Positions 20,501 through 23,500 are shown, numbered from the stretch's first letter. The stretch is 64,000 nucleotides of DNA from Euglena gracilis (GCA_039621445.1 CP154954.1:14364387-14428386); one strand, 5' to 3'. Notes: generated from the sequence alone by a model not told the origin. Numbers and translations are program-made.

Positions 20501-23500
20501 GTGGCCCGACAGTGGCCGTTTTCAAGAGAAAATTGGGTCGGCCATTGCCACGACCCAAAGGTGGCCCAACCTCTTGGGGGTGTGCTTTTTCAATGGGCAG
20601 GCTTCGACTTTGCAACCACAGTAGACCCATCCCGGACCCACCCCTGTCCCTGGGGGTGTCGTCCCTGTGACCCCCCACAAACCCCCCCTCCCCGTGAGTT
20701 GAAGGAACACCCATGTCTAAACGAAGTTTAAGGCACTCGTGTATTGTGGTGTGGGCGTATACAGGATCACACCATGAGCTGCTGTCTGTACCCCTGTTTA
20801 TGCCCCGCCTGAAGAGTTTCCTGACCTCACTTCTGCCTGGTGCCTTTTGTGCGGGGTCGCCCCCCCCCCCCCATCCCCGCGGTGTCCCCTTGCTGCCCGG
20901 CCCCGCCTCCCCGCCGAGGCCTGGGCCCTCCGTGCCGCTCACCAGCCACGCCCTGGCGAGGCACCACGCCAGCCTCAGCCTCGGCCAGGCCACCCCACGC
21001 GGGCAGCCGCCGCGTGGAGTCGGTGTGCGACGCACTGATGCATGAATTGTGCGCTCATCATACCTACCCCCCCCCCTGGGAAACTGTCATGCCCGAGAAC
21101 CTGTCAGGGTCCCCGGCCAACCTGTCAGGTGACAGTTTTTTTTTCCCGGGGGGGGGTAGTTCTTGTTCCTGCGGGGAAACTGTGTCTGGGCACGACTGGA
21201 TGACCTCGGCTTTATCCGATTGACGGCGCAATCAGTTGGGGCAGTCCGCTGCACCCTTTGGTCGTCAAATAAACCACAGAAAGCAAACACAAATCGGACA
21301 ACTGCAGTATCAATTCTCTGTTTCCCATATCCAAATATTCCCCCTTGGTCGGCCTGCCCTTGCCCCCTCCCTGAACCCCTTCTTCTGGCTCCGCTCGGAC
21401 CATACCTCCCAGCCAGGCTGCTTTTTGACTCACCCCCCTCCTCTTTCACGGGTCCTTTTGGTGGGTTTCATCCGGGGGAGAGGGCGTAGTTGCAGCCTGA
21501 AACAAACGTGCTTGGACACGGCGTCGTTGGGGGGGGGGGGGCTTAAAATAACTGCCCAACAGCCGCCTGCGGCTCAACGGCCGTCATTTGGGGGGGGGGG
21601 GGGCTTAAAATAACTGCCCAACAGCCGCCTGGGACCCAACCGCCGCTGGCCACCCCCGGCGCCGCCACGCCGGAGCCCAAGCCGCCCACCGTGCGCCCGT
21701 CGCTCGCCGCGCTCTCCGCCACCGACGGCGGGGAGGGCGACCGCGGCCGATGGTCGGTGGCGGACCCTGGGCTGCGGCCAGAGCGGACCGGGATTCTCCG
21801 ACGGCCTATGGGTGGTGCTATGGGTATGTGGTTGAGTGTGTGGGTGAGTATGGGTGGTGGCGGGCTGACCCCCCGTCCCCGTCGTGATGCATGGGCAGCG
21901 GCTGGCCCGGCTTCTTTTCCACTCAAAAAACCGGGAGAGGTGCCCTCCTGGGGCCCCTACCCCCCTGGAGTCCCGGATTTGCTTTTTTCCAGTGTTCTAC
22001 GAAACGGCTCGCCAGTGGACCCCCCCCCCCGCACGAGGCCTTCCTGTATTGCCCTGGCGGCGGGAGTTCCAATTGCGGCAGCGGGAGAAGCTGCTGGAGG
22101 ACGAGCCCCGGGGCTGGTGATGGTGGCCGTGTCCTTGTGTTGAGGGTGTGTGGTTCGTGAAGCTGTCAGCGACCCATGTGGGCAGCACTCTGCTGGGTCA
22201 TGCCCGTCGCCTGAAAGGCCCTCCTTCTGGGGGTTCTTTTCAATAACCTGTCGGCCAGGAGAACCTTTGATCCCACCGGATCCGATCCCCCTTGCATGCT
22301 GACTCCTGACACCAATTTTTCAAAAAAAAATCGCACTTTTTGCTAAGAAAATGCATTCCCCAGGTTGAAAATCAGTGTCTGGTGTCATAAAAAATATTTT
22401 TTCGGTTTTTTTTGTATCGGAGTCCATAAACAACATATTTTTCTCCATGGTTCGGATCCATTTGGGAACTGCTCTCTCTCAGCACTGTATTTATGAGGAC
22501 AGTTACCTGGTGAGTGGTTACATTTTTTTGAAATTTTCTGGTTGTGTCAAAATACTTTTCATGGACATTTCGTCCAATTTGTGCAGGCATTTTTACCCTC
22601 GGCCGCCTTCTGAACCGAACTGTTTTGTGTGCCCTCGTCGGTGTTGAGAAAGGGATCTCCCCCTACTCTGTGTTGGGGGCAGGCTTGTGCTTAGTCGGGT
22701 GGCTACCCCACGGAGGGGGGCTGCTAGGGGCAGACACCCTATAGCACCCCGTCCGACCCCCCCCCCCTGGGGGGTAGTTGGGGGTGCCTGCCCGTAGCAG
22801 GCGCCCCCCTCCTGGGGGTGCCTGCCCATAGCAGTCACCCCCTCCGACCCCGGTGCCAAAGGCCCCGGGGGCCCGGAAAAGGCCATTCTCAAGGAAAATT
22901 TTCTGGGTCTCCGGGGACCCCCCCCCCGGGAGGGTGTGCAAGCTAGGGGCAGGCACCATATAGCACCTACCCCCCCTGTCGGTAAGCACAAGCCTGGTTG
23001 GGGGATCCGACTTCCCCCCAGGATTTCCCTTAATGTGCCTGACACTGTCACATTTCACCACCGAGTATTTGAGCATCCATTTAGGCTCATTGACACCCGC
23101 TCCGGCTGGCAAAGCAGTGCCGAGGTGTCTGCGCGGAGTCGGAAACCGTTGCGCCCTGGGCTCCGAGTGAACGTCGCATGTTCGGGTTGTGGTTGTTTGA
23201 CGTAACCGACTGGAGTTGGACATTTGTGGTACCAAGGGCGCGGATGGCGTTGATTTGGAAATGCAGTGTCGGGTTTTCGTTCATGGGTTCGGGCTCAGGA
23301 CACCACTCTGGGCTTGGGTTTAGGTTTTCGGGTTTGCGTCAGCAAATCGTTTCAGAGGAAGATTGATCTCCAGCGCCAGCAACACATCTGGCAGCGGCTG
23401 ACTGGCTGGAAATGCCTTTTTGTTTTGGGCTTGGGTTCAGCTCAGTTCAGTTCAGTTTAGGGTTCAGGTTTTGCAGTCCAATCAGCATAGGTTTGGAGTT

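Follow-up and report, generated by a model that had tools for sequence, protein, structure and literature searches.

Free copies of a miniature inverted-repeat element in Euglena gracilis carry the end signals of nonconventional introns, and one of them lies within such an intron

A 64,000-nucleotide (nt) stretch of Euglena gracilis DNA (GCA_039621445.1 CP154954.1:14364387-14428386; here called the window, which all counts and scans cover unless noted) contains a 317-bp noncoding element, E1, that lies within a nonconventional intron and whose own ends match those of nonconventional introns. Based on its structure, its relatives elsewhere in the window, and the introns of the surrounding gene, we conclude that E1 is probably a nonautonomous, hAT-like transposable element of the miniature inverted-repeat type (MITE), that its ends constitute the full splicing code of nonconventional introns, and that the class to which it belongs is probably the source of older introns of its host gene. 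E1 and its borders are as follows.

22672-22679: left copy of the 8-bp target-site duplication, GTTGGGGG
22680-22996, unstranded: E1, 317 bp, noncoding and MITE-like; inverted ends perfect over 14 bp, duplication perfect over 8 bp
22680-22693, plus strand: left inverted end, CAGGCTTGTGCTTA, read directly
22983-22996, minus strand: right inverted end, the identical 14 bases, read directly
22997-23004: right copy of the 8-bp target-site duplication, GTTGGGGG

Direct reading and a script agreed that the ends of E1 (CAGGCTTGTGCTTA, of the form CAGG..CCTG) match at 14/14 positions and that its flanks (GTTGGGGG) match at 8/8, just as an earlier note on this DNA had described them. No Pfam family was found in the open reading frames (ORFs) that overlap E1. 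A scan for structures of 60 to 3000 bp that begin with CAG and whose inverted ends and flanks agree at no fewer than 11/12 and 7/8 positions, respectively, found two, E1 and E3 (see below), whereas 200 dinucleotide shuffles yielded a mean of 0.005 and none reached two. Since such shuffles do not preserve homopolymer runs and E2 and E3 sit in runs of C and G, only the duplication of E1 is strong evidence of this kind.

E1 is one of several copies. Four further elements and two related termini were identified, E5 by means of a relaxed scan.

46581-46964, unstranded: E2, a 384-bp element; ends CAGGGTT(T/C)GATATAAGGA, 17/18; flanks CCCCCCCC and CCCCCTCC, 7/8, a low-complexity C run
51436-51621, unstranded: E3, a 186-bp element; ends CAGGCTTTTGCTTAAGG, 17/17; flanks GGGGGGGG, 8/8 (G8/G8)
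59296-59930, unstranded: E4, a 635-bp decayed copy of the E3 type; 3' end identical to that of E3, 5' end 14/17, no duplication
25946-26030, unstranded: E5, an 85-bp element; ends 13/14 (15/18); flanks GTGGGTGG, 8/8, in a (GTGG)n tract
54716-54732, minus strand: related terminus CAGGCCATTGCTTGAGG, facing outward, in a large inverted duplication
56375-56391, plus strand: second copy of the CAGGCCATTGCTTGAGG terminus, facing outward

The shared terminal style that had been claimed for E2 and E3 is borne out by ends matching at 17/18 and 17/17 positions, with flanks of low complexity; E3 lies in a long G run, and its duplication carries little information. The end family of E3 is that of E1. With a tolerance of 2 mismatches, the end motif CAGGCTTKTGCTTA is present at five sites (each of the two ends of E1 and of E3, plus the 3' end of E4) against 1.12 expected, and none of 100 shuffles reached five. 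Aligning the termini yielded a consensus, CAGGC-(TT/CA)-(T/G)-TTGCTT-(A/G)-AGG, that is common to the elements E1, E3, and E4 as well as to the two termini at 54732 and 56375, while the interiors of the family differ widely despite these common ends. Because the flanks of E1 and E3 differ, the duplication was made at insertion rather than carried along with the element.

Several additional observations concern this family. Each arm of the inverted duplication at 54638-56462 ends in an outward-facing family terminus, and the flanking sequence GAGTGG(G/A)(C/T) is common to both arms and also borders E4 on its left. Isolated sites with 13 to 14 of 17 positions in agreement with the MITE ends occur at 35825(+), 17661(-), 5270(-), 53317(-), 60921(+), and 8131(-); these may be decayed termini, and the one at 17661 falls within the intron at 17295-18298. 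The duplications of E1, E2, E3, and E5 are all rich in G or C (GTTGGGGG, C8, G8, and GTGGGTGG), a hint that G/C runs may be preferred as insertion targets. A metagenome scan with the two-ended element pattern returned no match, and one with a 17-mer returned 71 single matches, about the chance level, so that no relatives were found there; the best 17-mer match (L025, 30 bp) adjoins an apparent bacterial gene.

To place the elements relative to genes, we relied on an ORF at 30173-30517 that matched a single protein, P0001 (1253 amino acids [aa]), which is EukProt entry EG_transcript_694; "EG" presumably denotes Euglena gracilis in the naming of that transcriptome. A chain of exact 6-residue words from this protein traced the gene across the window, and the introns were defined by listing every junction consistent with the protein.

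14265-35705, plus strand: P0001 gene, residues 509-1253, in 26 exons and 25 introns
22105-23110, plus strand: nonconventional intron hosting E1, 1006 bp, between residues 802 and 803 of EG_transcript_694

The 26 exons are essentially identical to the P0001 protein, in which no Pfam family was found. None of the 25 introns can be read as a GT-AG or GC-AG intron at any allowed position. Of the 25, 18 have CDG at +4 to +6 and CHG followed by a spacer of 5 to 6 nt, and 16 also have the purine that follows. The ends of introns in this gene read CAGGC..GCCTG and CAGGG..CCCTG, and the match between element ends and intron ends that the earlier note had pointed out holds on 25 protein-defined introns. 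Seven of the 25 introns fit no CDG..CHG register with a 5- to 6-nt spacer, including the E5 host intron (24935..26117) and the intron at 26559-28450.

Since residues 802 and 803 are contiguous across 22105-23110, E1 is intronic; both of its flanks are intronic as well, and it does not interrupt the mature mRNA of P0001. The host intron ends in CCGGGGC../..GCTCCGG, which pair in the canonical 3/5 register with the motif CCG..CGG. E5 also lies within an intron (24935..26117), whereas E2, E3, and E4 are located beyond the stop codon of the gene. The earlier placement of these elements inside introns thus stands for E1 and extends to the newly found E5; for E2 and E3, an intronic position is putative. 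A GT-AG intron at 22510-23021, which had been guessed by eye around E1, was ruled out by the protein mapping.

The cis requirements for nonconventional splicing have been defined genetically as 5'-N3CDG../..CH'GN5-6|R plus pairing beside the motifs, and 50-bp inserts of entirely synthetic sequence undergo splicing when they have these features (PMC12501133). E1 conforms to this code throughout. On the plus strand, a GGG spacer precedes CAG at +4 to +6; on the 3' side, CTG is followed by GTTGG and then by G at 23002; and the perfect 14-bp terminal stem forms in both the minimum free energy and centroid folds (z = -5.3), its terminal pairs being confirmed separately. The resulting unit is as follows.

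22677-23001, plus strand: predicted RNA excision unit under the code of PMC12501133, consisting of N3 (GGG), E1, and N5 (GTTGG), with G as the next base (23002)

This is exactly the unit that the earlier note had proposed from the sequence, and the join 22676|23002 would restore GTTGGGGG. Since E1 has every feature required in cis, its nested excision is predicted. E1 fits the code on both strands; for the 3' portion of the code (CH'G, spacer, and purine), E5 conforms only when the spacer is 6 nt long, E2 does not conform on the plus strand, and E3 does not conform on the minus strand. The outermost pair in the folds of E2, E3, and E4 falls at +4/-6, as it does in introns I7 and I16.

The link between these elements and the exon-splitting introns of the host gene begins with geometry. 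The two spacers of the splicing code, 3 and 5 nt, add up to the 8 bp of the duplication, so removing N3, the element, and N5 rebuilds one copy of the duplicated 8-mer. Remnants of the duplication were sought in 20 in-register introns by aligning the 8 nt that precede the 5' motif with the 8 nt that follow the 3' motif, using displaced flanks from the same introns as the null. Agreement averaged 3.85/8 positions relative to 2.41 in the null, and none of 20000 resampled means reached the observed value; agreement at 5 or more positions was found in 7 of the 20 introns, compared to 6.2% in the null. The best flank repeats were one at 8/8 (28552-29052) and one at 7/8 (31097-33343).

The end sequences provide a further connection, for which four introns are relevant.

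19444-20268, plus strand: exon-splitting intron I7, in the canonical 3/5 register; 14/17 positions of its 5' end, CATGCCATTGCTTGGTG, agree with the terminus of the 56375 type
21776-22061, plus strand: exon-splitting intron I11; 3' end matches the 3' inverted end of E5 at 14/17
28552-29052, plus strand: exon-splitting intron I18; CAG..CTG, N5, and purine; flank repeat TGGGCGGG, 8/8; 3' end matches that of E5 at 14/17
31097-33343, plus strand: exon-splitting intron I22; flank repeat 7/8; 3' end matches that of E5 at 14/17

I7 and the 56375-type end also have a subterminal GGGGTTGGTxxAC block in common. Exact 14/17 matches to eight MITE end sequences occur at eight positions on the two strands of the window, and four of these are in-register intron ends. 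When only sites that start with CAGG were considered, matches at 14/17 or better were found at 3 of 23 intron ends but at only 2 of 646 other sites (P = 3.4e-4, Fisher test; P = 9e-5, rank test). Taken together, three independent lines (geometry, duplication remnants, and end sequences) tie the elements to the introns. As far as this one gene is concerned, there is good support for a class link between the elements and nonconventional introns, and, judging from these borders, its older exon-splitting introns look like decayed copies of the E1-type class. The suggestion that the elements form an intron-generating class has accordingly gained the spacer geometry and the decayed ends and duplications of exon-splitting introns; the end matches are confined to termini. 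BLAST also revealed that the center of E2 matches part of intron I17 (74% over 104 bp). E2 was separately considered as a full-length relative of intron I18, and this candidate was dropped, as only a shared internal repeat aligns.

The hAT terminal consensus is YARNG. The CAGGG of E2 and of one E5 end agrees with this consensus, whereas E1, E3, and E4 read CAGGC or CAGAC and deviate at the fifth base. Among superfamilies with 8-bp duplications, the elements are nonetheless most like hAT, given their CAG start, short ends, and 8-bp duplication. They also resemble hAT-type MITEs in that several copies have unrelated flanks and no coding capacity. It is unlikely, though of the alternatives the least so, that the elements belong instead to another superfamily that makes 8-bp duplications, such as Merlin or P. 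The CAGGC ends of E1 and E3, which differ from CAGNG, and a target without the hAT pattern would fit such an assignment, and two Merlin families with 8-bp duplications have been described in E. gracilis (PMC8101967). However, Merlin ends carry a conserved terminal 5'-GG (PMC8101967), which E1 lacks, since its duplication directly abuts CA..TG, and the CAGGG of E2 and of one end of E5 likewise argues against a superfamily other than hAT.

A second alternative dispenses with transposase altogether: the direct repeats and dispersed copies would stem from double-strand-break repair or from excised intron RNA, possibly circular, that reentered a transcript and was copied back into DNA. Precedents exist, in that the 8-nt repeats of a new gapC intron were read as a trace of break repair (PMC4770533) and excised nonconventional introns are circular (summarized in PMC11282704). 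The lack of a transposase in the window and the last five bases, GGGGG, that the flanks of E1 and E3 have in common are also consistent with this scenario. Nevertheless, when several copies share long perfect inverted ends but differ in their flanks and differ greatly in their interiors, this is the signature of cut-and-paste elements, and many introns show flank repeats whose length is fixed at 8 nt and which are in register with the inverted ends. An RNA circle, moreover, would bring along its old 3 + 5 nt, and its flanks would match only at an identical 8-mer. We consider this origin improbable.

It is very unlikely that E1 is simply an ordinary, nonmobile nonconventional intron of an overlapping or alternative transcript. 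Its fit to the splicing code on both strands speaks for such an intron, but its flanks are intronic in the sole verified mRNA, it has a perfect 8-bp duplication, and copies of the same family occur elsewhere in the window. Nor does a coding-like ORF span the E1 join: the shorter sides of the ORFs across it measure 21 and 26 codons, below the median of 30, a comparison that is not in itself discriminating. Lastly, the window is rich in G/C runs and microsatellites, which inflate the flank identity of E2, E3, and E5, but the shuffle tests and the complex flanks of E1 leave almost no room for chance as the origin of the inverted ends and flanks.

Several findings weigh against regarding E1 as a mobile hAT-like MITE whose class gave rise to the introns. 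The fifth base of the E1 and E3 ends (CAGGC) and the target GTTGGGGG depart from the hAT consensus. Screening the 411 ORFs in the window that reach 60 aa, and separately 10 long ORFs, revealed no Pfam family and no transposase. Only E1 has a duplication of complex sequence, those of E2 and E3 lying in homopolymers and that of E5 in a tetranucleotide repeat, and neither an empty site nor a paralogous copy of the E1 flanks occurs within the window. The homology between elements and introns consists of termini at 14/17 with no full-length alignment, and BLAST detected no interior similarity of E1, E3, or E5 to introns other than their own hosts. Excision of E1 from pre-mRNA is a fair prediction from the code rather than an observation. 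Finally, the terminal helix of the host intron is predicted to form with or without E1; because it forms with E1 in place, nested excision would not be required, and no order of removal is imposed. The putative young age of E1-type elements is likewise judged solely from their perfect ends and flanks.

Our preferred account, that of a hAT-like MITE, would run as follows. A MITE with CAGG..CCTG ends would have been moved by a transposase into a nonconventional intron of the EG_transcript_694 gene, generating the 8-bp duplication. Its ends would supply a complete cis code, namely, 3 nt, CAG, a paired stem, CTG, 5 nt, and a purine. Excising the element together with one duplication's worth of RNA would restore the preinsertion sequence exactly, and any copy inserted where the DNA is transcribed would be an intron from the outset.

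A broader reading, which we offer only tentatively, would take the 3- and 5-nt spacers as the RNA image of the 8-bp duplication. Nonconventional introns, the majority of Euglena introns, would then, taken as a class, be insertions from a single lineage of hAT-like MITEs that is still active, each copy an intron upon landing. Intronic copies such as E1 and E5 would be excised as circles, as introns within introns, and the 3/5 offset, a 2-nt 3' stagger from the stem, would point to a nuclease that measures the stem rather than to the spliceosome.

The remainder of the window offers further observations. No exact 6-residue word of P0001 residues 1-508 was found in the 14 kb upstream of the mapped exons (1-14264), and one isolated word lies at 51396-51413; either the gene's 5' half is located at a great distance or it is missing from this part of the assembly. 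In the exon for residues 527-564 (14578-14692), two frames overlap at 14618-14619, a one-base frame break relative to the transcript that represents either an assembly indel or an allele. Coding-like segments on the plus strand between 50551 and 62146 (e.g., 50551-50730, 51646-51795, and 52559-52717), as scored by a codon model trained on the neighboring gene, hint at a second plus-strand gene from ~50.5 kb, and E3 ends 25 nt before one such segment. Two protein searches returned no match for this region, and a search of representative proteins with 28956-29846 returned just one weak match.

Other repeats are also present. A 2.7-kb unit at 8390-11078 has ~29-bp inverted ends with one mismatch, flanks GTCCGGAC and GCCCGGAC matching at 7/8, and ORFs without a Pfam family; a long palindrome at 7052-9715 overlaps it. 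A repeat that combines a CGGCGC..GCGCCG palindrome at its core with a TGTCCAACGACC block occurs at 26755-27040, 28640-28860, 45230-45330, and 46749-46842. Introns I17 and I18 both contain it, the center of E2 matches its core in part, and it probably represents a second family of MITE-like elements within introns. Long microsatellite blocks of the (AT)n/(GT)n type, partly inverted repeats, occupy 31380-32600 and 39700-40830, the first within the intron at 31097-33343. Rfam and tRNA scans of the window returned no hits.

The idea that nonconventional introns derive from MITEs dates from 2013 (PMC3935182), when no euglenid transposable element had been identified, and has been repeated since (PMC6221363, PMC11282704, PMC11170887, PMC12621601, PMC12501133). 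In the passages cited, the published accounts treat the transposon source as a hypothesis (PMC3935182, PMC4770533, PMC11282704, PMC12501133); it is still termed unclear in the discussion of PMC12501133 and is posed as a question in the outline of PMC6221363. Relative to the nonconventional introns described in these accounts, E1 is a free copy that has perfect ends and a duplication and does not split an mRNA. The closest published case is intron 4 of gapC in Euglena agilis ACOI 323, a recent nonconventional intron that has 8-nt direct repeats like those of E1; unlike E1, it splits an exon, and its authors favor break repair (PMC4770533; compared by description only).

Other systems share some of these features. 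The introners of Micromonas, Aureococcus, dinoflagellates, and others are likewise MITE-like, become introns upon insertion, and draw part of their splice geometry from the duplication, but they are spliceosomal GT/GC-AG introns with 3- to 5-nt duplications (PMC11282704), whereas the elements described here have 8-bp duplications and ends like those of a stem-dependent, non-GT-AG system; E1 with its flanks has no GT..AG at the unit ends. Maize Ds can also act as an intron, but, unlike what is predicted for E1, it is removed through ordinary spliceosomal sites (Giroux 1994, cited in PMC3935182). Twintrons and stwintrons, like E1, place an intron-like unit within an intron (PMC9024468, PMC12403724); they require the inner intron to be removed first, whereas the ends of the E1 host intron are intact and predicted to pair with E1 in place. 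The hAT MITEs themselves are noncoding and have 8-bp duplications and short inverted ends that begin with CAG, as does E1, but the E1-type fifth base and target pattern deviate from their consensus, and no transposase partner was found in the window. The terms "8 bp" and "hAT" are absent from the review PMC11282704, as are "hAT" and "MITE" from the genome paper PMC11252322, and a search that left subscription journals and supplementary files outside its scope found no published description of free copies, of a superfamily name, or of the 3 + 5 = 8 relation. The hypothesis of a transposon origin is thus already in print, while intact free copies and the link between 3 + 5 and 8 were not found in the literature searched.

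How euglenid nonconventional introns originated has been unsettled since the 1990s. The free copies described here combine perfect ends, an 8-bp duplication, and the full splicing code, and their decayed relatives are real introns in the same gene. The match between the end signals of E1 and those of nonconventional introns supports the old idea that these introns derived from such elements, and intact free copies make that idea countable genome-wide and testable by the published knock-in assay. The 3 + 5 = 8 relation, in turn, would explain two known facts about nonconventional introns, namely, that most of them are "slidable" and that their removal is exact.

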